This document shows, piece by piece, positions 2,025 to 19,197 of a DNA stretch of 56,512 bases. How positions within the stretch are numbered: position 1 is the stretch's first letter; each line of letters starts with the position of its first letter. Source of the DNA: Candidatus Hadarchaeota archaeon (lineage in GTDB: Archaea > Hadarchaeota > Hadarchaeia > Hadarchaeales > Hadarchaeaceae); NCBI GenBank assembly GCA_964514965.1, contig CAZETV010000002.1:188545-245056 (forward strand). Direction: 5' to 3'. Below the pieces are notes generated by a model, which ran no database searches, had not been told where the DNA came from, and saw nothing but the letters and a program-made list of their open reading frames with translations. The position numbers and the translations under genes are program-made.

Positions 2025-3320
2025 TTACTTGGGCCTGATATATCCCCACTTCTCTATGGCGGCCCTCAATTCTCCTCTTCCCTTGGCGTATTCTTCAAGC
2101 GGAACTTTCCTTAGCGTAGCATCGATGGCCTGACGCACAGCTGCTGCCCCCGCTCGTCCACCTAGCGGATGTCCCCAAACACCGCCCCCAACTTGGATGA
2201 TAATATCTGTTCCAAACATGCCGATGATCTCGGGTACCAAACCTGGGTGCAACCCGCCTGAGATGACGGGGAAAACAGGTCTGATCGCGCGCCACTCTTG
2301 AGCTAGAATTTGCCGTCCCCTTTTAACGTTACTATTCATGATTTCTCTTTGTAGCGCCAGAACCTCCTCCCGTGGCGCCTCAAGCTTCCCTATTGCGGTG
2401 CCGATGTGGAGCTGGTCAACGCCCACAAGGCGAGCTATTTTTGCAACGGCTAACATAGACATCCCATGCTCTGGCTTGCGCGTGAATGCGGCGTGGAACG
2501 CACGGTGAGCGTGGATCGCGAGCCCTAAATCTTCACAATCATCGCGCAGCGATTGAACTCCTGCCCACCCCGCCGTCAGGATATCTACCATCACATACTC
2601 CCCACCTTGCTCCTTTACGAATTTCGCGCGGCGGAGCATTTCTCGCGTCTCGGCGGTCACGTTAATCAAATAGCTCTTTCGTTCTCCAGTTTCGTGCTCG
2701 GCTCGGTCGCGCAGCTCAAGCGACTTAGTCACCCTGCGTTCGAATTGGTTGAATCGCTGCCCAGAGAGGTTCTCATCGTCCTTGAGCAGGTCAATGCCGC
2801 CTACCCAAGCTTCGTATCCCGCTCGAGCGTGCTCCTCGCTGCTCATCCCGACTTTGGGCTTTGGCACCGTTGCGGTCAGCGGCCCCTCTCTCCCCTTGAA
2901 TATCTTTCTGATGCCCTTGATACCAAACTGAGGACCCTTGAAAGATTTTATGAGCTCCGGAGGCCACCGCACGTCCTCGAGCCTGAGATTGCGCACGGCT
3001 TTCATCCCGAAGATGTTGCCCGCGATCGAGCTAAGCACTTGGGGCATGTTCCCCGCCTCGAAGAGGTCAAGCGGGTAGGCCACCTTCACCCACCGCCCTT
3101 TAATTTCGTAGGCCTTCGCCATGAGTCGTCGCTTTTCGGGCGTCATCGTCGTAAGGGTGGTCCAAGTGCCAATCGAGCTCTCCGAGGCCACGCGCCCCAC
3201 GGCTTCTCGCATGCTAATGCCGTTCGCAGGCTCAACTCTAAACAAAACGATCAAGTCCTCGCGGGCGGGCCTGTAGCTCGGGTCGACGAAATCTAAATAC
3301 CATTCGGTCTTCATGCTCAT
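2025..3320 (-). CDS. rbcL: Ribulose-1,5-bisphosphate carboxylase/oxygenase large subunit, archaeal form III.
   Basis: Motifs GIDLLKDDENL, LAIHAHRAFHAAFTR, GGGVWGHPLGGRAGAAAVRQA. 431 aa. No small-subunit gene nearby. Confidence 0.9.
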   Translation of the reverse strand: MSMKTEWYLDFVDPSYRPAREDLIVLFRVEPANGISMREAVGRVASESSIGTWTTLTTMTPEKRRLMAKAYEIKGRWVKVAYPLDLFEAGNMPQVLSSIAGNIFGMKAVRNLRLEDVRWPPELIKSFKGPQFGIKGIRKIFKGREGPLTATVPKPKVGMSSEEHARAGYEAWVGGIDLLKDDENLSGQRFNQFERRVTKSLELRDRAEHETGERKSYLINVTAETREMLRRAKFVKEQGGEYVMVDILTAGWAGVQSLRDDCEDLGLAIHAHRAFHAAFTRKPEHGMSMLAVAKIARLVGVDQLHIGTAIGKLEAPREEVLALQREIMNSNVKRGRQILAQEWRAIRPVFPVISGGLHPGLVPEIIGMFGTDIIIQVGGGVWGHPLGGRAGAAAVRQAIDATLRKVPLEEYAKGRGELRAAIEKWGYIRPK

Positions 3321-3561: not shown

Positions 3562-3798
3562 TCAAGCCAGCACCACGAATACCACGCTATCGCCGCGAAT
3601 GAAAAGCAAACCGTATCGCTTTCTCACTCGGTCCCCCTCAAGGCTCGTGGCATCGTCGAGCACCAAATTCATGTGCATATCGTAAGCGCGCAACTTGCCA
3701 CGGAGCCTAGCCGCCCCTTTTAGCCCAACGATCACCTCGTTGCTCGAAGCGCGACCCAGTATTTCAGACAGAAGGCTTTCGGGACGAACTTGCACCAT
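3562..3798 (-). CDS. Archaeal Sm-like (LSm) protein.
   Basis: Sm1/Sm2 pattern: VIVGLKGAARLRGKLRAYDMHMNLVLDDA ... RYGLLFIRGDSVVFV. 78 aa. Confidence 0.85.
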   Translation of the reverse strand: MVQVRPESLLSEILGRASSNEVIVGLKGAARLRGKLRAYDMHMNLVLDDATSLEGDRVRKRYGLLFIRGDSVVFVVLA

Positions 3799-5620: not shown

Positions 5621-6970
5621 ATGGGTTGTATGTTTTCGAAGCTCGACACAAAACGTTTAAATCCCGCATATATCGAAATTCGATACGAGATTAGATACAA
5701 GGTGAAGTGTGTGGAGGTAAAACCACTTAGTAATATCATAGCTATCGGAAAGACGACGCGGGGGGGCAGACCATTCCCTGTCAGAAGGCATCGGGGCCTG
5801 TACTTTTTCATCCCGGTTGAGCAGTTCGACTGGTTAAGGGAAGTAAATGATGCTTACAAGACCCTCTACCGAATGGAGGGGGGGGTAGAGCCGCTTCAGA
5901 AGATAAAGATAGTTGGGAGAGGAGGCGTTGAGGGATACAAGCCATTCTTGCTCAGGGGGCACTACGGACGGTATTTGTGCATCCTCGCCGAGCATCTTAG
6001 ACAGCTCAAGCAGATCAACCGCGCGTATGCGGAACTACTTGAAGCTAAAGGGCTGGAGAAAGAGCGCAAGAGGAGGTTAGAAGAGAAGGAACGAGCGAGC
6101 AAAATTGTAGAAAGCGTGAAAGCGGCGGTAGAGGACGCCCGAAAGATAGGAGCACCCGAACATGGGGCCGAACTCATGCGGCCCGTCGACGAATCCCTTG
6201 CCGAAATCGAGGCTGCGTTCATCGCCGAGGAATACAACAAGACCATTGAGCTGGCATCAAAAGTGGATGAACTGGTCCGAGAAGCTAGGGCAAAAGCGCT
6301 CAAGAAAATCGAGGAAACGAAAAAGATCGAAGCGGTGAAAAGACCTCCAGAAGAGGGGAGGTACGTTTACTGCATCATCCCTTGGGAGGGGAGCCACAGC
6401 AGGCTTAGCTTTGGAGACTTGGGTGTAGAGGGCAACGGCGAGGTGTACGCCATACCCTTTGGAGACATCGCAGCGGTCGTGAGCAACGCCCCCTTCAAGG
6501 AATACGTGCTCACCGAGGACAACATACGCACCCATAACCAAGTCATAACGCGCGTGATGCAGGAGTACCCTGTCGTGCCAATGGCTTTCGGCATGGCGTT
6601 CAAAAATGAGGGGGTGCTCAAAGGGTTGCTCGGGAGGATGCGCGATGATTTGAAAAATGCCCTAAATGAAGTCAAGAGCAAGGTCGAACTCGGCGTCAAG
6701 GTGATCTTGCCGGAGGGGACCGAGTTCGACGAGAACGCATTTGCATCTGAGATCAAGGCGCTTCACGAGCTGGCGACCCAATGCAAGCTCGGCAAGCGGT
6801 TCAGCAAGCGTTTGATCTTGAACGCGTTTTATCTAGTAGCGAAAGAAAAAGTGGAAGATTTCCTAGGCGCGGCTAAAGCGCTGGAGGAGAAGTTCAAACA
6901 GCTGAGTATACAGTGCACTGGTCCATGGCCCCCGTTCAACTTCGCAACAATAAAAGTTGGAGGTAGGTGA
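5621..6970 (+). CDS. gvpF: GvpF/GvpL-family gas vesicle protein with a ~240-aa N-terminal extension (two copies of a ~45-aa domain plus a coiled coil).
   Basis: C-terminal 205 aa (GRYVYCIIPWEG...GDIAAVVSNAPFKEY...VVPMAFGMAFKNEG...TGPWPPFNF) is canonical GvpF/L. The N-term contains IIAIGKTTRGGRPFPVRRHRGLYFFIPVEQFDWLREVNDAYKTL and KIKIVGRGGVEGYKPFLLRGHYGRYLCILAEHLRQLKQINRAYAEL, the same duplicated domain as in ORF 9969..10274. Confidence 0.8.
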   Translation: MGCMFSKLDTKRLNPAYIEIRYEIRYKVKCVEVKPLSNIIAIGKTTRGGRPFPVRRHRGLYFFIPVEQFDWLREVNDAYKTLYRMEGGVEPLQKIKIVGRGGVEGYKPFLLRGHYGRYLCILAEHLRQLKQINRAYAELLEAKGLEKERKRRLEEKERASKIVESVKAAVEDARKIGAPEHGAELMRPVDESLAEIEAAFIAEEYNKTIELASKVDELVREARAKALKKIEETKKIEAVKRPPEEGRYVYCIIPWEGSHSRLSFGDLGVEGNGEVYAIPFGDIAAVVSNAPFKEYVLTEDNIRTHNQVITRVMQEYPVVPMAFGMAFKNEGVLKGLLGRMRDDLKNALNEVKSKVELGVKVILPEGTEFDENAFASEIKALHELATQCKLGKRFSKRLILNAFYLVAKEKVEDFLGAAKALEEKFKQLSIQCTGPWPPFNFATIKVGGR

Positions 6971-7265
6971 GGTGCCCTTCCTAGTCGATGACATAGTTCT
7001 CCGAATGCTCGGGATTTCGATCCCGCCCTTCGACATGATCTGGTTGCTGGAGACCATACGGGACTTCGCCGTTCGGGAAGTCTATGATCCTGAAAAGATA
7101 AGCGACTCGATAAAGGAAAACCGGATGCTCTACGAACTCGGGGAGATCACGAAGGAGGAGTATGAGCGGGTCAATACAGAGCTCCTCGAGGCGCTCGAGA
7201 TAGCAAAGCGTGCTAGGGAGACGAAGATCGAGCACCGCATCGATATTTTGGGAATTGGTGGGTAG
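6957..7265 (+). CDS. gvpG: GvpG-like gas vesicle protein.
   Basis: FLVDDIVLRMLG...YDPEKISDSIKENRMLYELGEITKEEYERVNTELLEALE matches the GvpG pattern as remembered. Position between gvpF and gvpH. Overlaps the gvpF stop. Confidence 0.6.
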   Translation: MEVGEVPFLVDDIVLRMLGISIPPFDMIWLLETIRDFAVREVYDPEKISDSIKENRMLYELGEITKEEYERVNTELLEALEIAKRARETKIEHRIDILGIGG

Positions 7266-7266
7266 G

Positions 7267-7791
7267 ATGAAAAGGCACCCTATGCAACTATGCAGGCTCC
7301 TCTTTGGCAACATATTTCACGACCTAGAAAAGCTGGCGAGGACAGTAGATGCGCTCGCCAAAGAGGGAGAGGTCCGGAAGGGGTACAAAGAGGGCCCCTT
7401 CATCGTCGAGTACCGGCGGACCGTTCGCTACATCCGCCCTGAGTCCACCGCTCCAGCCCCCGAAGCACCGCGAATCGAAATCAAGCCGAAACCAATCGAG
7501 GCCGAGGCCAAGCCTAGGGAATCGCTAGTGGACGTTTTCGACATGGGAGATCATATCTTGGTCATGGTCGGGCTCCCCGGTGTGAAGGAGGAAGATATCG
7601 AGTTCGAGACCGTGGGCAGCGCGCTCAAGATCAAGATTCACACACCCGGTGGCGATGTCGAGGGCGATATCTCGATTGCGGGAGTTGAACAGGTTAAAGA
7701 AATCATGGGTGCCTCTTTCAAGAACGGCACCCTCGAAATCAAACTGAAAAAAATAAGGGAGGTGAAGAGATGGGAACCAGCACAGCGATAG
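7267..7791 (+). CDS. gvpH: GvpH-like Hsp20/alpha-crystallin-domain protein.
   Basis: ESLVDVFDMGDHILVMVGLPGVKEEDIEFETVGSALKIKIH...GTLEIKLKK is an Hsp20 ACD. ATG at 7267 directly follows the gvpG stop. The track ORF starts at 7210 on an upstream alternative start. Confidence 0.75.
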   Translation: MKRHPMQLCRLLFGNIFHDLEKLARTVDALAKEGEVRKGYKEGPFIVEYRRTVRYIRPESTAPAPEAPRIEIKPKPIEAEAKPRESLVDVFDMGDHILVMVGLPGVKEEDIEFETVGSALKIKIHTPGGDVEGDISIAGVEQVKEIMGASFKNGTLEIKLKKIREVKRWEPAQR

Positions 7792-8174
7792 GGGTCGGGG
7801 GGCTGAGGAGGCGCAGGCGAAAGGCCATGATATCTAAAACAGTTGCGCGGAGCAAGCTGAGCAGGGACAGATCGAGAGTCAAGCTGCTGCACGCGAGGGA
7901 GCGGTACAAGATGAAGGTGTGGAAGCACGAGCGCGGGATGGCAGCCAGAAAGGCGGAGCAACCAAGCAAGCTTGGTCCGCTTGCGGTATCGTTCATGCCT
8001 TCGAAAGAGTCCGCCAAGCGATCCAGGCTGGTGCAGCCCCGCTGGTCGGCCGTGCCCAGCAAGCCCAAGTATTCCGATGTGAAGCCGAAGGAGAGGCTCT
8101 ACGGGCTGAGGTTCGAGGCGCGCGAGAAGCGACTCGCAAAGCAGGAGTCCGAGGAGAAAAAGCCCAAGGAATAG
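7770..8174 (+). CDS. gvpI: Basic Arg/Lys-rich protein in the gvpI position.
   Basis: 134 aa, very basic (RRRRRK, KAEQPSK, KPKYSDVKPKE...), as GvpI is described. Synteny between gvpH and gvpJ. Confidence 0.45.
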   Translation: MGTSTAIGVGGLRRRRRKAMISKTVARSKLSRDRSRVKLLHARERYKMKVWKHERGMAARKAEQPSKLGPLAVSFMPSKESAKRSRLVQPRWSAVPSKPKYSDVKPKERLYGLRFEAREKRLAKQESEEKKPKE

Positions 8175-8184
8175 GTAGGTGTGG

Positions 8185-8544
8185 ATGATGGTAGCTATCG
8201 CCCCGACAAGGGAGGGCCCGAGCGACTTAGCTCAAACAATCGAGAAGATTCTCGACAAGGGACTCGTGCTAGACGCCGACATCGCGGTTTCGGTCGCCGG
8301 TACCGAGTTGCTGGGCATAAAGATTCGCGCCGCACTCGCCTCTTTCGAAACCGCCGCGAAATATGGTCTCGAGTTTCCGAGCGGCGTCAACCTCAATGCC
8401 CCTGCATGGAAAGAGATAAACGTGAAAAAGGCGAAGTGCCCGGGCTGTGGAAACGAGTGTCCGGAGGAGGAGCTGCTCAAGCGGGGTTGTCCAATCTGTG
8501 GCTGGATGAGCCCGCTGAAGCCAAGACAGGCCCCGATCCCCTAG
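8185..8544 (+). CDS. gvpJ: GvpA-family (GvpJ-position) protein with a C-terminal CxxC...CxxC zinc ribbon.
   Basis: LAQTIEKILDKGLVLDADIAVSVAGTELLGIKIRAALASFETA is the GvpA/J/M core. C-terminal CPGCGNECPEEELLKRGCPICGW. Confidence 0.75.
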   Translation: MMVAIAPTREGPSDLAQTIEKILDKGLVLDADIAVSVAGTELLGIKIRAALASFETAAKYGLEFPSGVNLNAPAWKEINVKKAKCPGCGNECPEEELLKRGCPICGWMSPLKPRQAPIP

Positions 8545-8553
8545 GTGGTAAAC

Positions 8554-8868
8554 ATGGCAATCGAGATCGATGAGTACAACCTCAAACAAGGGTTGCTGGG
8601 GCTGGTAGTCGCTCTCGCCGAAGTCATCCAAGAGGTGCTCGAGCACCAAGCGCTGCGGAGGATGGAGTCGGGTGGGCTGACCGATGCTGAGGTGGAGCGG
8701 CTCGGCAACGCTCTCATCGAGCTCGACGAGGCACTTGAACGCATCAAGCGGGAGAACGGAATCGAGGAGTGCGTGAGGTCCGTGCGAGATGGGCTCGACC
8801 AAGTAGCGGACGAGGCCATCCGTAAGCTAGCCGACCCGCAGGAGTGGGCAAGGGAGGCCACATCGTGA
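8554..8868 (+). CDS. gvpK: GvpK gas vesicle protein.
   Basis: LLGLVVALAEVIQEVLEHQALRRMESGGLTDAEVERLGNALIELDEAL matches the GvpK signature. GGTGG SD 5 nt upstream of ATG 8554. Confidence 0.8.
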   Translation: MAIEIDEYNLKQGLLGLVVALAEVIQEVLEHQALRRMESGGLTDAEVERLGNALIELDEALERIKRENGIEECVRSVRDGLDQVADEAIRKLADPQEWAREATS

Positions 8869-9653
8869 ACGGAACCCAAAAAGCGACCGAGGGGAGGTAC
8901 CTATACTGTATAGCCAGCTGCGGCGATGGGTTGTCACTGGGAGAGATAGGGATAGACAAGGGCCAAGTTTACACGATTACGCATAACGACATCGCTGCAG
9001 TAGTACACGTTTGCCCGCCCAAGCCCTATGAGTCCAAGGACGAGGAGCGCGTGAAGCGCTGGGTCTTCACCCACAACTACATCATCGACCAAGCCACCAA
9101 GCGATTCGGCACGGTGCTGCCTTTCTCTTTCGATTCTATCGTCAAGGGGGACGACGACGCGGTGGAGGGATGGCTGAGCGAGAATTACTCCCGATTTAAA
9201 GGTGAGCTCGAGAGGCTCAGAGGGAAGTCGGAACACACGGTACAGATCTTCTGTGACGCCTCCTTGTTAGCGCGGAGGATTGAAAAAGACAACCAGGAGA
9301 TTGGGTGGCTCGCGGAAGAGATCAAAGTAGCTCCCAAGGGAAAAGCCCACCTACTCGAACGGAAGCTCCAAAAGATGATTAGGGAGGCCGTGGCAGCTCA
9401 GGTTCGCGATTGGTCCAAAAAGTTCCATGTGCAGATAGAAGAACATGTCGAGGAGGCGAGGGAGGAGCGAAGCAGGTTCGTGCCCGAGCGGTTCAAGGAT
9501 AAGAAACTCGTGCTAGGCCTATCGTGCTTGGTCAGCGAGGGGAAAGTCGAAAAACTCGGAGAGGTGCTCCGCCAAATAAACGAGCAAGAAGGGTTCTCGG
9601 TGCGGTTCACGGGGCCTTGGGCGCCATTCAGCTTTGTGAGGTTGACCAAATGA
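8865..9653 (+). CDS. gvpL: GvpL (second GvpF/L-family protein).
   Basis: GRYLYCIASCGDG...HNDIAAVVHVCPPKPY...TGPWAPFSFV. GTG start at 8865 overlaps the gvpK TGA (GTGA), with GGGAGG SD upstream. The track ORF uses an earlier GTG at 8844. Confidence 0.8.
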   Translation: MNGTQKATEGRYLYCIASCGDGLSLGEIGIDKGQVYTITHNDIAAVVHVCPPKPYESKDEERVKRWVFTHNYIIDQATKRFGTVLPFSFDSIVKGDDDAVEGWLSENYSRFKGELERLRGKSEHTVQIFCDASLLARRIEKDNQEIGWLAEEIKVAPKGKAHLLERKLQKMIREAVAAQVRDWSKKFHVQIEEHVEEAREERSRFVPERFKDKKLVLGLSCLVSEGKVEKLGEVLRQINEQEGFSVRFTGPWAPFSFVRLTK

Positions 9654-9883
9654 GGCCGACGCGGGAGTGCGGGCTCGTCGAGTTGCTCGATAAGATTTTG
9701 GACAAGGGCGTGGTGCTCAACGCAGATGTTATCATCTCGGTCGCTGGGGTTCCACTGGTGGGGGTGAGCCTCCGCGCTGCGCTTGCCGGAATCGAAACGA
9801 TGTTGGACTACGGCATAATGGAGGCTTGGGACCAGAGCATTAGGGAGCATTACTCAGAGGAGCTGGCGAAGAGAAAAGCGTAG
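9650..9883 (+). CDS. gvpM: GvpA-family (GvpM-position) minor gas vesicle protein.
   Basis: LVELLDKILDKGVVLNADVIISVAGVPLVGVSLRAALAGIETMLDYG. ATG overlaps the gvpL stop (ATGA). The track ORF 9524 is an upstream extension. Confidence 0.8.
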   Translation: MRPTRECGLVELLDKILDKGVVLNADVIISVAGVPLVGVSLRAALAGIETMLDYGIMEAWDQSIREHYSEELAKRKA

Positions 9884-9968: not shown

Positions 9969-10274
9969 TTAAAGCTCTCGATACGCTTCGTTGACCGCCC
10001 GAAGCCGCTCGAAGTCCTCCGCAAGGATGCAGAGGCAGCGTTCCCCCCTCACAAGAAATAGCTTGAAACCAAGTACGCCACCTCTGCCCACGATTTTTGG
10101 CTTGCTGAGTGGCTTCACCTTGGCCCTCCCCCTAGACAGCGCCTTGTAAGCTTCATTAATTTTCAGTAGTCTCTCGATGTCCCTTGCCGAGATAAATAAA
10201 TAGTCGCCTTTTTGCCCGGTGATTCTGAATGGCTCCTCGGTCCCTCGCTTACCTATAACCTTTATCCTCTTCAA
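9969..10274 (-). CDS. Standalone protein made of two copies of the ~45-aa domain also found at the N-terminus of GvpF (5621).
   Basis: IKVIGKRGTEEPFRITGQKGDYLFISARDIERLLKINEAYKAL plus KPKIVGRGGVLGFKLFLVRGERCLCILAEDFERLRAVNEAYREL. Convergent with gvpM. Confidence 0.55.
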   Translation of the reverse strand: MKRIKVIGKRGTEEPFRITGQKGDYLFISARDIERLLKINEAYKALSRGRAKVKPLSKPKIVGRGGVLGFKLFLVRGERCLCILAEDFERLRAVNEAYREL

Positions 10275-10385: not shown

Positions 10386-12551
10386 CTACCTTACCATCTC
10401 CGGAGTCATCGTCGGTCGAACCTTCTTTATCGCCCCATCGAAGTGCTTGCACTCGATCCGCTTGTCCTTGAGCGCCTTCCGCATCGCTTCCTTAGTCATC
10501 CCGGGCTTAATCGCCTCCCGGAGCGAGAGCATCACTGCCTCCCTGCATATCGCCGCTATGTCCGCGCCCACGTAGCCTTCGGTCCCCTTGGCGAGCGCGC
10601 TCAAGGAAACGTCCTTTGCAAGAGGTTTCTCCTTGAGGTGGACCTTGAAGATTTCCTCGCGCTCCTTCGGGTCGGGAGGTAGAACGTAAATCAGCCTGTC
10701 GATTCGGCCCGGCCTCAGCAGCGCCCGGTCGATCATGTCGGGCCGGTTGCTAGCGCACAGCACGAGCACATCCTTCAGCTCCTCCAACCCATCGAGTTCG
10801 GTCAACATCTGACTAACGACGCGCTCGGAGACATGCGAGTCGAAACTCACCGCGCGCGTCGGGCACATCGCATCGATTTCATCGAAAAAGACGATGCAGG
10901 GGCTTGCTTGCCTCGCCTTCCTGAACATCTCCCTCACGCCCCGCTCGCTCTCGCCAACCCACTTCGACAGCAGCTCTGGGCCTTTAATCGAGATGAAGTT
11001 CGCCTCGCTCTCGGTCGCGACGGCCTTCGCCAGCATTGTCTTGCCAGTGCCGGGGGGTCCGAACAATAAAATCCCCTTGGGGGGCTTGGTCTTGAAGCGC
11101 TCGAAAGCTTCGGGGTACTTGAGTGGCCACTCCACCGCCTCGATCAGCTCCTGTTTTGCCTGCTCCAAGCCGCCTATGTCATCCCAGTGCACGTTGGGGG
11201 CTTCGATGAACACCTCCCGCATCGCGCTGGGAGTCACAGTCTTGAACGCATTTGAAAAATCATTCATCGTGACTTCAAGTGCCTCAATGATCTCAGCTGG
11301 AATCTCCTTCTCGATCTCGATTTTCGGCAGGATCTTGCGCAGGGCGCTCATCGCCGCCTCCTTGCATAGCCCAGCGAGGTCAGCGCCTACAAAGCCGTGA
11401 GTTATGTCGGCGAGGTAGTTGAGGTTGACATCTTCTGTGAGTGGCATCCCGCGCGTGTGGATCTGCAGGATCTCGTAGCGCCCGTTTCGGTCTGGGATGC
11501 CTATCTCGATTTCGCGGTCGAATCTTCCTCCTCGGCGCAACGCCTCATCGAGAAGGTTGGGTTGGTTAGTTGCACCAATTACAACAACTTTTCCGCGCGT
11601 CTTAAGACCATCCATCAGCGAGAGAAGTTGCGCCACCACCCGCCGCTCAACCATCCGCTCCCCAGTCATCTCCGAGCGTTTTGGGGCAATCGCGTCTATC
11701 TCATCGATTAGGACGATCGCTGGAGGGTTCGCCTCCGCCTGCTCGAATATCTCCCTGAGGCGGGCCTCTGACTCCCCATAGTACTTACCGATCACTTCTG
11801 GACCCGAGACGAAAACGAAGTTCGCATCGGTCTCGTTTGCTACCGCCTTCGCTATTAGCGTTTTGCCTGTGCCTGGGGGGCCATGGAGCAGTACCCCTTT
11901 AGGGGGCTCAATCCCCAGCCTCTGAAAGAGTTCGGGATGCTTTAGCGGTAGCTCGATCATCTCACGGATGAGTCCTACCTCGCGCTTCAGCCCGCCGATG
12001 TCCTCGTAGGTGACGTAGGTCCGCATAGCCTCGATTGGCTTCTCTGCGAGCGTGACCTCGGTCTCCGGGACAACGATAACAACGCCCGTGGGCTGGGTGG
12101 AGGTGACGATGAAAGTAAGTGGTCTACCTAGAATATCGACTCGAATTTGCTGGTCCTTGATGATCGGCTGCCCCTCGAGCACCTTGCGGATGTACTCGTC
12201 GCCCTCCACTATCCTTATCGGCTCCGTGGGGGCAACACTTATTCTCCTCGCCTTCTCGGCGGCGGCCTTCCTGATCTCAACCCGCTCACCGATTCCAATG
12301 CTTGCGTTGCTCCGAATGTTACCATCGATCCGAATTATCCCACTGCCCGAATCCTCGGGATAGCACGGCCAAACAATCGCGTAAGCAGACCCCTTCCCCT
12401 TAATCTCGACGATGTCCCCGCTGACCATACCTAACTTTTTCATCACCTCTGAGTCTACCCGCGCTATCCCCCGACCTGCGTCGCGGTGCTTCGCCTCAGC
12501 AACTAGCAGGATTTGGGGCACGTTACCACGATTTTGTTCTCGCTTCCTCAA
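10386..12551 (-). CDS. cdc48: CDC48/VCP-type AAA+ ATPase (N-domain plus two AAA modules).
   Basis: Two Walker A sites (GPPGTGKT twice), SRH motifs, N-terminal double-psi barrel region. 721 aa. Confidence 0.9.
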
Positions 12552-13259: not shown

Positions 13260-14288
13260 CTAACTTGGTATCACCTCTTTCACGAGGCGTTGCTTATTGA
13301 CAAGATCGACGGGCCCCTTAACCTTCGTCGCTAAGATATCGAGAACCAGTTCTTCGAGCCGCTTCTCGCCGTCGCCTAGCACCATGAGTCCTTGAGCGAC
13401 CATTATACAGGCCCGCGTCCCAGGCTTCTCGGCATCGGGCAGTTTTTCCCTTATCTTTCTGATAATCTCCACTATCCTCCGCGCATCTGCGTCGGATACT
13501 CCCGAATGCGCCGTCGTGATCTCCACCTCGGTCTCTGGGTCGTAGAAGTCCATGTAGATTCCAACGGTGCGATCAAGCAGCGCGTCCTGCGGGCGGTGCA
13601 CCCCGGCGTAGTCGACCGAGTTGCTCGTGAATATCGCCATGAATTCCGGATGGGCCTTGATGTATCGCTCCTCGCCGAATCGCGTGGGGAGTTCCAGCAC
13701 GCCCTCTTGGAACACCGAAAGCAGGACGTTGTTAGCTTCAGGCTTCGCTCGGGAGAAATCGTTATAGACGAAGATGTAACCATTCTTGCACGCGATCGTC
13801 AGCGGGTTGTCCACCCAACCAGCTTTCAGGATATTTTTCGCCTTGAGGACGGTGTGAACGTAACGGTCGCGGATGCTCTCACTCTCCACCTGTGAGTAAC
13901 CACCAACGAGATCAGTCGTAGTCATTGACTCGTCTCCGTTCAGCCAGACCGTCGGCTTTCCCAGCTCTTCGGCCACTTTCATCGCGAGCGTGGTCTTCCC
14001 GCAGCCGGTCGGGCCAATGATGTGAACAGGGTAGCCGGCGTTGAGCCAGAGCTTCACCTTCTCCTTGAGTTTTTTGACTTGCTCGGTCTCGACGAAATGC
14101 TCGACCTTCGGCATCAGGTATCTGGTCTCCACCGTTTCAGCAGCGAGTTCAGGTCTCACAGTAATCGCTCGCTTAACGAATTCCGCGCGCTTCGCACGTT
14201 CCTCGCGCCACCGCTCTTTTGCCTCCTCCAAGGTCTCGGTGATTCGCTCTCCCCTGACTTTCTTAGGATGGGCCCGTCTCCATCTCAC
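13260..14288 (-). CDS. gvpN: GvpN AAA+ (MoxR/CbbQ-like) gas vesicle ATPase.
   Basis: VHIIGPTGCGKTTLAMKVAEELGKPTVWLNGDESMTTTDLVGGY... Single AAA module, 342 aa. Confidence 0.85.
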   Translation of the reverse strand: MRWRRAHPKKVRGERITETLEEAKERWREERAKRAEFVKRAITVRPELAAETVETRYLMPKVEHFVETEQVKKLKEKVKLWLNAGYPVHIIGPTGCGKTTLAMKVAEELGKPTVWLNGDESMTTTDLVGGYSQVESESIRDRYVHTVLKAKNILKAGWVDNPLTIACKNGYIFVYNDFSRAKPEANNVLLSVFQEGVLELPTRFGEERYIKAHPEFMAIFTSNSVDYAGVHRPQDALLDRTVGIYMDFYDPETEVEITTAHSGVSDADARRIVEIIRKIREKLPDAEKPGTRACIMVAQGLMVLGDGEKRLEELVLDILATKVKGPVDLVNKQRLVKEVIPS

Positions 14289-14397: not shown

Positions 14398-14595
14398 CTA
14401 CTCGTACCAAAAGTCATTTACGTACTTGCCCACATCTTCTTTGTGGTATCTTTCAATCTCGTTTTGAAATTTTTTGGCTTCTCCGAGTAACTCCTTAGCG
14501 CCCCGTTCGATTTTTTTCACCGCAGCATCAATCGCTGCGCGCTTCGCCATCACGCCAGTCTTTTCCTTTTCAGCCACCCTGCGCCCCCCTAACAA
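14398..14595 (-). CDS. Small alpha-helical GvpC-like or gvp-associated protein (paralogue of 14637..15065).
   Basis: C-terminus AKKFQNEIERYHKEDVGKYVNDFWYE parallels ...KRLGNEFKRYRKEDFSNAIQNFWYG of the neighbour. Position between gvpA and gvpN is where gvpC sits. Confidence 0.4.
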   Translation of the reverse strand: MLGGRRVAEKEKTGVMAKRAAIDAAVKKIERGAKELLGEAKKFQNEIERYHKEDVGKYVNDFWYE

Positions 14596-14636: not shown

Positions 14637-15065
14637 CTAACCGTACCAGAAGTTTTGGATAGCGTTACTGAAGTCTTCTTTCCTGTACCGCTTGAACTCG
14701 TTGCCTAACCGCTTGCATTCGTTGCTTAACTTCTTTGCATTGCTCAGGATTTGTTCGGTCCCCTTGCCGATCTTCGCTACTGCCTCCTCGTTCTCTTTGA
14801 CTTGCGCTTGGATCGCCGACTGAAGTTCACCTGCCCCAGTCTCTATCTTTTTGACAGCTTCCTCCACTTTATTGGTTGTCTCTTTAACTGCTGCTGTCAT
14901 CTGCTTGACTCCCTCGGTCATTCGTCTCTCTCCTTCTTTGTAAATGTCTTTGCCTGCTTTTTGAACATCTCTACTTGTCTTCTCAATCGCGGCACGCTTC
15001 GCTAAAACCCCCTTCTTCCCAATCTTCGGTTTTTCCACCTTAGGTGTATACTCCTCTTCTACCAT
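14637..15065 (-). CDS. gvpC: GvpC-like helical-repeat scaffold candidate.
   Basis: 142 aa. Repetitive Lys/Glu-rich helical segments (AKRAAIEKTSRDVQKAGKDIYKEGERRMTEGVKQMTAAVKETTNKVEEAVKKIETGAGELQ...). Directly downstream of gvpA. Confidence 0.4.
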   Translation of the reverse strand: MVEEEYTPKVEKPKIGKKGVLAKRAAIEKTSRDVQKAGKDIYKEGERRMTEGVKQMTAAVKETTNKVEEAVKKIETGAGELQSAIQAQVKENEEAVAKIGKGTEQILSNAKKLSNECKRLGNEFKRYRKEDFSNAIQNFWYG

Positions 15066-15130: not shown

Positions 15131-15352
15131 CTAAGGCGCAGCTGGTGCACCGATCGCAGCTGCCTCGATTTTCGTCATCTCTTCCGCGTAGTGGACGAAG
15201 GTGTCGACTGACGCCACTACCACACGAGCCTCAACAGTAAGTATCTCAATTCCAACTAGCGAAACTCGTGCCCAGACATCGACGACAATCCCCTTGTCGA
15301 GGATTCGATCGAGAACCTCTGCCAAGTTACTAATTGCTGGTCTAGCTGCCAT
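15131..15352 (-). CDS. gvpA: GvpA, major gas vesicle structural protein.
   Basis: [52 protein letters not shown] is a near-canonical GvpA core. 73 aa. GGAGGT SD. Confidence 0.95.
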
Positions 15353-18049: not shown

Positions 18050-18595
18050 TCAGCTTTCCGTCCTAGCTTTCTTCAGCTTTATCTCGAGGACGCCATGCTT
18101 GTAGCTTGTCGTTAGCTCGCCGCTGACGGGGGCCGGGAGTTCCACCCGCTCGCTGCAGTTTCGATCCCCTCGCTCGGCTGAAATCGTCAATACCGTCCCT
18201 TTTGCCTCGGCTCTTATATCGTGCTCCTCGACGCCGGGGAGCTCCGCCACCACTCGCAGGTGGTCTCCTTCATCGAAGACATCCACGGGGGGTTCCGTCC
18301 TTTCGGGCTCTCTCGGTGCGATCTTTTTAATCGGTCCCCTTCGTGTGGTTCTCGGCTTCTCACCCTCGATGATGTGCTTGACCGAATAGCCGCTTTCCAC
18401 ATGCGGGCGCAGGCTTCGATGCACGCCCCCGCGTATGTTTTCCTCTATTTGTTCGTTGACTTCCCTAAACCTCTGCTGGAACGCTGGCGATTGTAGCGCG
18501 AGGTCGACCAGATTGCTTAATCCGAGCTCCCTCAGTACGCCTTCCGCCATGCCCTCGCTTTTCTCTTCGGGCCTTTTCTTCTTCGCCATTTTCAC
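18050..18595 (-). CDS. Hsp20/alpha-crystallin-domain protein with N-terminal extension (GvpH-like paralogue).
   Basis: PPVDVFDEGDHLRVVAELPGVEEHDIRAEAKGTVLTISAER...GVLEIKLKK. Confidence 0.7.
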   Translation of the reverse strand: MKMAKKKRPEEKSEGMAEGVLRELGLSNLVDLALQSPAFQQRFREVNEQIEENIRGGVHRSLRPHVESGYSVKHIIEGEKPRTTRRGPIKKIAPREPERTEPPVDVFDEGDHLRVVAELPGVEEHDIRAEAKGTVLTISAERGDRNCSERVELPAPVSGELTTSYKHGVLEIKLKKARTES

Positions 18596-19197
18596 TCTGC
18601 CTTCTTCTTGAGCTTTACCTCTAGAACGCCGTTCTTGTAAGTCGACTCGAGTTCGCCCGTCACAGCCGCAGGAAGCTCAATTTCCTTCGAGTACTTTCGC
18701 TCCTTGGTCTCCGCTGAAATTTTCAGCGTTCGCTCTTTTATCTCGGTCTTGATGTCTTTCTCTTCAACCCCAGGAAGTTCCGCGATCACCGTTATCTCCT
18801 TCTCGTTCTCGAAGATGTCGACGAGTGGCTCCCTAACTTCTGCGACACCTAGCTTGAGCGTTGGTTTAATCGTGCCAAACCTGCTGAGCACCGGACCCTT
18901 TGGGCCGATCTTGACGCTCACCCCATACATCCCGTGGGGCAGCCTCCTTCGCTCGACTGAAACACCCGCCTTCTCTAGCTCCTTCGCCTCCTCGGCCAGC
19001 TTGGTAACTTGGCCGATAAACTCGCCGATCCCTGCGAACAATCCGCCTAGGTTGAGCCCCCACTCGATCACTGGCTCTGGCTTCTTCTCGGGATCTTTCT
19101 CCTTTTTTTCCTCCACCATTTTTACATCCCTCCGAATCTCTATTTGGAATCCCCCATATATAAATGTTATCATTAGTGATGATATTTTTATAACCAA
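18592..19197 (-). CDS. Hsp20/alpha-crystallin-domain protein with N-terminal hydrophobic and Gly-rich segment (GvpH-like paralogue).
   Basis: REPLVDIFENEKEITVIAELPGVEEKDIKTEIKERTLKISAE...GVLEVKLKK. Stop overlaps the start of 18050..18595. Confidence 0.7.
   Translation of the reverse strand: MVIKISSLMITFIYGGFQIEIRRDVKMVEEKKEKDPEKKPEPVIEWGLNLGGLFAGIGEFIGQVTKLAEEAKELEKAGVSVERRRLPHGMYGVSVKIGPKGPVLSRFGTIKPTLKLGVAEVREPLVDIFENEKEITVIAELPGVEEKDIKTEIKERTLKISAETKERKYSKEIELPAAVTGELESTYKNGVLEVKLKKKAE

Follow-up and report, generated by a model that had tools for sequence, protein, structure and literature searches.

A conserved, predicted zinc-ribbon module on the gas-vesicle protein GvpJ recurs on other proteins of gas-vesicle operons in archaea and bacteria

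How gas vesicles are nucleated is an open question (PMC9994262, PMC10903477). The proteins proposed as nucleators, GvpJ, GvpM and GvpS, are homologues of the shell protein GvpA that occur in the bicones but not in the cylinder wall (PMC9994262, PMC10903477). The stretch of DNA considered here (the window: 56,512 nucleotides of a Candidatus Hadarchaeota archaeon, positions 188,545 to 245,056 of contig CAZETV010000002.1, assembly GCA_964514965.1) contains a gene that a first-pass annotation, made from the letters alone, had described as a GvpA-family protein in the position of GvpJ, with a four-cysteine ribbon appended to its C-terminus. The open reading frame and the peptide strings that it quoted are present as described. 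Is this tail a genuine part of a GvpJ, how far does it extend beyond this one genome, and what might a metal-binding ribbon do on a protein whose relatives build a gas-filled shell?

The gene sits in a complete gas-vesicle locus (Table 1). The plus strand carries the accessory genes; on the minus strand we find gvpA, helical proteins, gvpN (in a divergent arm together with gvpA) and a CDC48-type AAA ATPase. The basic protein preceding GvpJ (7770-8174) matches no Pfam or NCBIfam family, and its C-terminus carries the motif PKYSDV..ERLYG.R of Halobacterium (Hbt.) salinarum GvpI; the operon order is therefore gvpFGHIJKLM, as in haloarchaea. For gvpM, the true start is probably an internal ATG near 9644. 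GvpF matches no Pfam family besides GvpL_GvpF; its N-terminal extension contains two copies of a motif of around 45 residues (for example IVGRGGVEGYKPFLLRGHYGRYLCILAEHLRQLKQINRAYAEL), which also occurs twice in a stand-alone 101-residue open reading frame on the minus strand just past gvpM (9969-10274).

Table 1. Coordinates of the gas-vesicle genes in the window and of the three segments of GvpJ. Positions are those of the window; residue numbers refer to the 119-residue GvpJ.
Feature	Position	Strand	Basis or remark
gvpF	5621-6970	+	Pfam PF06386 (GvpL/GvpF), 1.4e-42; N-terminal extension of ~240 aa
gvpG	6957-7265	+	Pfam PF05120, 1e-16; NCBIfam gas_vesic_GvpG
gvpH-like (Hsp20-like)	7210-7791	+	weak ArsA_HSP20 match; H slot in synteny table
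gvpI, basic 134-aa protein	7770-8174	+	C-terminal motif as in Hbt. salinarum GvpI
gvpJ CDS	8185-8544	+	119 aa from ATG 8185; stop TAG 8542-8544
GvpJ: GvpA-like alpha-beta-beta-alpha shell-protein core	8224-8364	+	aa 14-60; PF00741, 8GBS/7R1C, AF2
GvpJ: GvpJ-specific linker GLEFPSGVNLNAPAW	8365-8409	+	aa 61-75, preceded by Y60; homologue conservation
GvpJ: predicted Cys4 zinc-ribbon module CPGCGNECPEEELLKRGCPICGW	8437-8505	+	aa 85-107; invariant Cys, AF2
gvpK	8545-8868	+	Pfam PF05121, 1e-18
gvpL	8844-9653	+	Pfam PF06386, 9.6e-63
gvpM	9524-9883	+	PF00741; NCBIfam best halo_gas_GvpM, 94.6 bits
CDC48/VCP-type AAA ATPase, two-domain	10386-12551	-	
gvpN	13260-14288	-	divergent arm with gvpA
gvpA, major shell protein	15131-15352	-	NCBIfam halo_gas_GvpA, 126 bits, above cut-off

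Between gvpA and gvpN, in the slot that gvpC occupies in haloarchaea, lie two paralogous helical proteins of 142 residues (14637-15065, minus strand) and 65 residues (14398-14595, minus strand), which end in FWYG and FWYE, respectively. Pfam gave only weak coiled-coil-type matches for them. Homologues, often with two to three internal repeats, are found in the same slot in loci of Methanothrix, Methanosarcinales and Bathyarchaeia, and these proteins may be a GvpC analogue. Further out, the gas-vesicle locus is flanked by two adjacent Hsp20-type genes (18050-18595 and 18592-19197, both minus strand), which we labelled GvpH-like by their similarity to the window's gvpH. To the other side, a 431-residue open reading frame (2025-3320, minus strand) resembles, by eye, a RuBisCO large-subunit-like protein of the form III type, and another (3562-3798, minus strand) an Sm-like protein; both fit an archaeal origin of the DNA.

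Turning to the gene itself, the enclosing open reading frame (8179-8544, plus strand) is uninterrupted in both the frame list and the sequence and spans 121 residues. A second ATG, at 8188, is the start of a 118-residue database protein (P0001) that is 100% identical to the window's GvpJ, and a mate in its 90%-identity cluster is annotated as coming from Hadesarchaea archaeon DG-33-1. The gene is placed between gvpI and gvpK, its stop codon abutting the gvpK start. Two opposite-strand frames (8232-8480 and 8269-8802) were treated as spurious, given the conserved protein encoded on the plus strand. The N-terminal part matches the Pfam family Gas_vesicle (PF00741) with 48.3 bits, against a gathering score of 25, over residues 17-54 of the 121-residue frame, and the NCBIfam model with the highest score is halo_gas_GvpJ (99.2 bits), followed by those for GvpM (45.8) and GvpA (45.6). 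Note that halo_gas_GvpJ is a haloarchaea-specific model with a cut-off of 125 bits, so that the window's protein scores below it. A profile of the family matches the solved gas-vesicle shells 8GBS (3.3e-14) and 7R1C (5.8e-13); Foldseek ranks the same two structures at the top, not significantly.

Every sequence test for membership thus places the protein in the GvpA/J/M superfamily. For the narrower assignment to GvpJ, synteny, linker motif and best-model rank agree, the haloarchaeal NCBIfam cut-off not being reached. Because of the PF00741 match, the GvpJ-best NCBIfam ranking, the matches to 8GBS and 7R1C and a fixed slot in all of 80 related loci, we regard the gene, judging by its sequence, as gvpJ, which in this archaeal gvp operon encodes the gas-vesicle assembly protein GvpJ; here the first-pass annotation was right, both about the family and about the GvpJ position.

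The protein falls into three parts. AlphaFold2 (AF2) models the core as helix, strand, strand, helix (residues 14-23, 26-37, 40-52 and 53-59) with moderate confidence (pLDDT 63-75), and across 120 homologues the core averages 83% identity to the query. The linker that follows, with the motif YGLEFPSG..W, averages 79%. Its final tryptophan, W75 (W74 in the numbering of the 118-residue protein), is invariant and stands ten residues before the first cysteine of the tail. The string YGLEFP(S/T)G after helix 2 is common to the GvpJ of the window and that of Hbt. salinarum, and is missing from Hbt. salinarum GvpM and from the window's own GvpA and GvpM.

The tail follows the pattern CPxCG-x13-GCPxCGW, in the window as CPGCG...GCPICGW, and its cysteines are C85, C88, C102 and C105 in the 119-residue numbering (codons 8437-8439, 8446-8448, 8488-8490 and 8497-8499). 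A fifth cysteine, C92, is confined to the window sequence and one close relative and is not conserved. The first-pass annotation had proposed to check the tail by aligning homologues, by an AlphaFold model and by searching other archaeal gvp clusters, and each of these speaks for it. The four cysteines, as CxxC-x13-CxxC, are kept in 120 of the 120 best homologues, the most distant of which share about 60% identity, with identical spacing in 117; core and ribbon are found together in 81 of 83 open reading frames from the best 80 genomic loci of other species. Conservation goes beyond the cysteines (invariant columns C25, C28, C42 and C45 of alignment A1): the proline after the first of them (P86) and the glycine and tryptophan after the fourth (G106-W107) are invariant, and the glycine before the third is invariant or nearly so. 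Column entropy rises from 0.43 bits (core) through 0.63 (linker) to 1.1 (ribbon), and reaches 2.0-2.35 bits in the three poorly conserved segments, in the N-terminus, in the stretch before the first cysteine and at the C-terminal end. When the tail was modelled alone, as a 50-residue construct, AF2 returned two short strands and a short helix, with a block of pLDDT 86-88 over residues 21-50 (residues 81-110 of GvpJ). Since the cysteines are invariant, since residues that would not be ligands are invariant as well, and since the modelled block has such a pLDDT, the tail is a genuine and strongly conserved module, by prediction a zinc ribbon. The predicted Cys4 ribbon presumably binds zinc; CPxCG knuckles can bind iron too.

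To what known ribbon might it belong? The window's GvpJ matches no curated zinc-ribbon family in Pfam at E <= 0.01, and its close homologues stay below threshold against Cys_rich_CPCC (18.1 bits versus 24.5) and Zn_ribbon_3 (18.2 versus 27). The best ribbon match in a profile search of the PDB is 8EY3 (E 0.009), fold searches gave no significant match, and the top, non-significant PDB matches include ribosomal ribbons and TFIIE. A precomputed Pfam label, PF28085.1, is attached to four of the 120 homologues; with so few of them matched, it probably does not denote a family devoted to the GvpJ tail. The Pfam families Zn_ribbon_3, Cys_rich_CPCC and DZR, the ribosomal eL37, eL43 and L32 ribbons and Haloferax HVO_2753 share with the tail two CxxC knuckles some 13 residues apart and, going by the prediction for the tail, a short beta-hairpin, but all matches of such generic Cys4 ribbons to the GvpJ ribbon lie below curated or significance thresholds.

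The one zinc finger discussed in the gas-vesicle papers that we found is the CxxC..HxxxH finger of haloarchaeal GvpC, which is involved in GvpC self-interaction (PMC9372576, PMC9501494). It resembles the GvpJ ribbon in being, as we propose below for GvpJ, a metal-binding knob outside the vesicle wall, here at a C-terminus, but it is a C2H2-like motif (CxxC-x12-HxxxH) on another protein, whereas the GvpJ ribbon has four cysteines. We considered a relationship between the two and rejected it, the GvpC motif being CxxC..HxxxH and the two having no sequence similarity.

How common is the ribbon form of GvpJ? A scan of one genome per GTDB species, with the conserved linker as query, matched 306 stretches coding for a relative of the tail. 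The archaeal carriers belong to Methanosarcina (cultured species such as M. spelaei and complete chromosomes among them), Methanothrix, Methanoperedens, ANME-1, Hadarchaeota, Bathyarchaeia and Thermoplasmatales, the bacterial ones to Dehalococcoidia, Anaerolineales, Desulfobacteraceae, Syntrophaceae, Planctomycetota, Actinomycetota, Atribacteria and Ignavibacteria; the search of other archaeal clusters that the first-pass annotation had called for thus finds the extension, and finds it in bacteria as well. In all of the 80 related loci the ribbon protein holds the GvpJ slot in a series ...F-G-[J]-(H)-K-L-M on one strand, which in the labelled families of Methanosarcina and Methanothrix loci reads F-G-J-H-K-L-M. 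None of the 80 yielded a GvpI homologue nor, judging from their synteny, a GvpC homologue. Besides GvpN, a CDC48/VCP-type AAA ATPase accompanies the gvp genes in about 21 of the 80 loci (for example L021, L024, L030, L047 and L074) and in the window. The window's gvpJ, then, is an ordinary member of a large GvpJ subfamily that spans archaea and bacteria, and this ribbon-bearing form, so far as sequences can tell, is a widespread standard GvpJ of many sequenced organisms and nothing special to the window.

Carriers include a Streptomyces plasmid, the haloarchaeon Natronococcus occultus (both from a plasmid collection) and a MAG labelled Nitrosotalea, all aerobic; that the ribbon should be confined to strict anaerobes was rejected as a rule, given the Streptomyces and Natronococcus cases. 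The two plasmid-collection loci are mini-clusters. In Natronococcus occultus plasmid 2 (L081, 6974-9541) the cluster comprises GvpJ-ribbon, a GvpM-like protein, GvpK and GvpL, and in the plasmid of Streptomyces sp. SGAir0924 (L082, 6001-8594) the same set with PH-like domains on the GvpM-like protein; no gvpA or gvpN is annotated within these stretches of 12-14 kb. Note that the NCBI labels can mislead here: the GvpM-like gene is called 'gvpJ' and the true GvpJ-ribbon gene 'gas vesicle protein'. Two Syntrophaceae loci have, directly upstream of the GvpJ-ribbon gene, a ribbon-less GvpJ of 78-79 residues that ends just past the GLEFPSGTN linker (L056, 1680-1916; L070, 2483-2716).

Comparison with described systems shows what is shared and what is peculiar to the ribbon form. 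Hbt. salinarum GvpJ, encoded in the p-vac and c-vac gvpFGHIJKLM operons, occupies the same slot I-J-K as the window's, and over query residues 6-69 the two cores share 64-66% identity, but the linker of the Hbt. salinarum protein, YGLEFPTGTD, leads into an acidic, low-complexity, cysteine-free tail where the window has the Cys4 ribbon. Among the accessory proteins it is an essential one; it binds GvpL, and a role in nucleation has been proposed for it (PMC7688916, PMC9994262). Anabaena flos-aquae GvpJ is built like the window's in that a GvpA-like core bears a lineage-specific C-terminal appendage, which there consists of six 21-residue repeats (PMC10903477) instead of a ribbon. The same architecture of core, linker and ribbon (CPECGN-x10-GCPICGW) is found in 'GvpJ 1' of Methanosarcina barkeri (P0096, with 67% identity across 88% of the query) and in the GvpJ of Methanothrix and other anaerobes. 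The M. barkeri-type locus differs from the window in its order, N-F-G-J-H-K-L-M (PMC9501494, Table 1) as opposed to H-I before J, in lacking gvpI, and in a longer sequence after the ribbon.

These comparisons divide the first-pass statement that such a ribbon is not found in described GvpJ or GvpM. It holds for Hbt. salinarum, whose GvpJ and GvpM have no cysteine ribbon (GvpM has no cysteine at all), and full-text searches, with subscription-only papers outside their reach, returned no paper mentioning a GvpJ ribbon; it fails for sequenced diversity, which holds M. barkeri 'GvpJ 1' and the 306 GTDB stretches.

We then asked which other proteins carry the module. When 1.84 billion representative proteins were searched with a profile of the tail, 114 of them matched at E <= 0.001, some of the weakest being long repetitive proteins. 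Along with GvpJ-type proteins, the matches comprise three further architectures: (i) proteins of around 365-385 residues with a GvpM-like N-terminus, two PH/GLUE/GRAM-like domains and a C-terminal ribbon; (ii) Hsp20 proteins, GvpH-like, in which the ribbon is N-terminal; and (iii) small proteins that consist of two or three ribbons in tandem. All share the extended consensus CPxCG-x7-LL-x2-GCxxCGW, which was recovered mainly from gas-vesicle clusters; all cases whose genomic surroundings were examined belong to gvp clusters.

The operon of GvpJ-ribbon encodes two or three proteins of these kinds in 31 of the 80 loci, often as direct neighbours of gvpJ. The tandem-ribbon gene, present in many bacterial loci, usually lies directly 3' of gvpJ, and loci with such a gene keep the ribbon on GvpJ too. 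A ribbon-Hsp20 gene takes the position directly 3' of gvpJ in one Methanoperedens and one Methanotrichaceae locus, and in Bathyarchaeia a second, divergent GvpA-like-ribbon gene directly precedes gvpJ. Many bacteria and some archaea encode proteins of the GvpM-like/PH-ribbon type in their gvp operons (L024, L027, L037, L039, L045, L053-L055, L063, L065, L067, L069, L074 with the gene at 7740-8828, and L080), and in two of these proteins (P0204 and P0211) the Pfam family Vps36_ESCRT-II scores above threshold. In the window, as in most Methanosarcina and Methanothrix loci, GvpJ is the sole ribbon carrier: neither the gvpH-like protein in the operon nor the two flanking Hsp20-type proteins have one. 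This recurrence of one ribbon module on several gas-vesicle assembly proteins appears to be undescribed.

What, then, might the ribbon do? The first-pass annotation had suggested metal-dependent interactions or nucleation control, and both are reasonable as candidate roles. In Hbt. salinarum, GvpJ, GvpK and GvpM bind GvpL, and GvpM binds GvpH, GvpJ and GvpL (PMC7688916). Imagine that the GvpA-like core of GvpJ joins the nascent bicone that nucleates the vesicle, as proposed for other GvpJ, GvpM and GvpS proteins, and that the linker YGLEFPSG..W tethers to it a compact, presumably zinc-binding Cys4 ribbon. The ribbon would then stick out from the nucleus on its cytoplasmic side, because a polar ribbon cannot face the hydrophobic gas side, and could act there as a docking or oligomerisation module tying GvpJ to other early-assembly proteins. 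Candidate partners would be GvpL/F and GvpK and, where present, the ribbon-bearing GvpM-like, GvpH-like and tandem-ribbon proteins. We arrive at this reading, in which GvpJ is a nucleator and its ribbon, stabilised by metal, a knob at the cytoplasmic face that serves for docking or oligomerisation, because the ribbon is found on precisely those types of protein (J, M-like and H-like) that interact in the haloarchaeal early complex, and in addition as free tandem copies. The ribbon has a net charge close to zero (mean -0.46, range -3 to +2), which fits contact with protein better than contact with nucleic acid. Keeping in mind that model GvpJs work without a ribbon, with an acidic tail in Hbt. 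salinarum and repeats in Anabaena (PMC10903477), and that sole carriage by GvpJ in the window and most methanogen loci means that ribbon-ribbon contact between different proteins is not general, we infer this role with a probability of about 0.5.

A more far-reaching version, which we put forward tentatively and would ourselves rather doubt, is that CPxCG-x7-LL-x2-GCxxCGW might be a dedicated gas-vesicle nucleation tag: a portable module that would gather GvpJ, the second GvpA-like protein, the GvpM-like/PH proteins, Hsp20-type GvpH and tandem-ribbon adaptors at the nascent bicone, by means of a shared receptor or by self-association.

There are a number of scenarios that do without a docking function. 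One is that the ribbon is bulk: a soluble knob on the exterior, with no specific partner, that would bar GvpJ from the regular ribs of GvpA and so keep it at the cone tip, where curvature is high, or limit its polymerisation. On such a model it would act like the acidic tail of haloarchaeal GvpJ or the repeats of Anabaena GvpJ. Unrelated C-terminal appendages are found on the same core and linker in Hbt. salinarum, in Anabaena (PMC10903477) and in the window; the cylinder wall contains no GvpJ (PMC9994262), and a short, tail-less GvpJ exists beside the ribbon form in L056 and L070. If bulk or solubility were the only effect of the ribbon, however, there would be no need for invariant residues that are not ligands (P86, G106, W107 and, in the linker, W75), and we would not expect the same module to recur on Hsp20, GvpM-PH and free tandem-ribbon proteins of the same operons. 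We consider this explanation unlikely.

A second possibility, and in our judgement a poor bet, is that the ribbon is a switch, unfolded by oxidation or by loss of metal, which would block or allow nucleation and so make buoyancy depend on redox state or metal supply. Anaerobes make up most of the carriers (methanogens, ANME, Bathyarchaeia, Dehalococcoidia, Syntrophaceae, Atribacteria), and both knuckles of the ribbon are of the CPxCG type that rubredoxins also use. Moreover, Methanosarcina barkeri has been reported to form gas vesicles only under certain growth conditions (PMC9501494). Yet the three aerobic carriers have the ribbon as well, the spacing of 13 residues is that of a zinc ribbon and not of a rubredoxin, and the sequence holds no sign of redox activity.

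Far less probable again is a nucleic-acid-binding or regulatory finger that would couple GvpJ to its own mRNA or to the control of gvp genes. Many small Cys4 ribbons do bind RNA or DNA, and ribosomal ribbons and TFIIE are among the non-significant structural matches mentioned above, but the neutral charge of the ribbon does not suit such a role, its fusion partners are shell-type, chaperone-type and PH-domain proteins rather than DNA-binding domains, and the core of GvpJ is an aggregating structural protein. Finally, that the tail is an artefact of annotation or assembly (a frameshift, a readthrough, or gvpJ fused with a separate small zinc-ribbon gene, conceivable where a tandem-ribbon gene directly follows gvpJ, as in many bacterial loci) is refuted by the conservation data and has practically no probability left: the frame is uninterrupted and has its own stop directly before gvpK, and the one-piece architecture, tail included, is found in every one of the 120 best homologues as well as in 80 independent genomes, among them cultured Methanosarcina with complete chromosomes, which also settles the first-pass worry that close orthologues might lack the tail.

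Returning to the reading we prefer, a metal-stabilised docking or oligomerisation knob, GvpJ, GvpM and GvpS are the prime suspects for nucleation, and their lineage-specific tails have so far been ignored. That a conserved module, predicted to bind metal, turns up again, in many species, on three or four other proteins encoded in the same operons suggests that a specific contact is made early in assembly. There is a practical side to this as well: gene clusters of anaerobes that are mined for acoustic reporter genes will mostly carry the GvpJ-ribbon type, and how well the ribbon is loaded with metal could influence the heterologous expression of such clusters. Should the nucleation-tag version turn out to be true, the ribbon would provide the first sequence-defined handle with which to isolate and image the long-sought vesicle nucleus.
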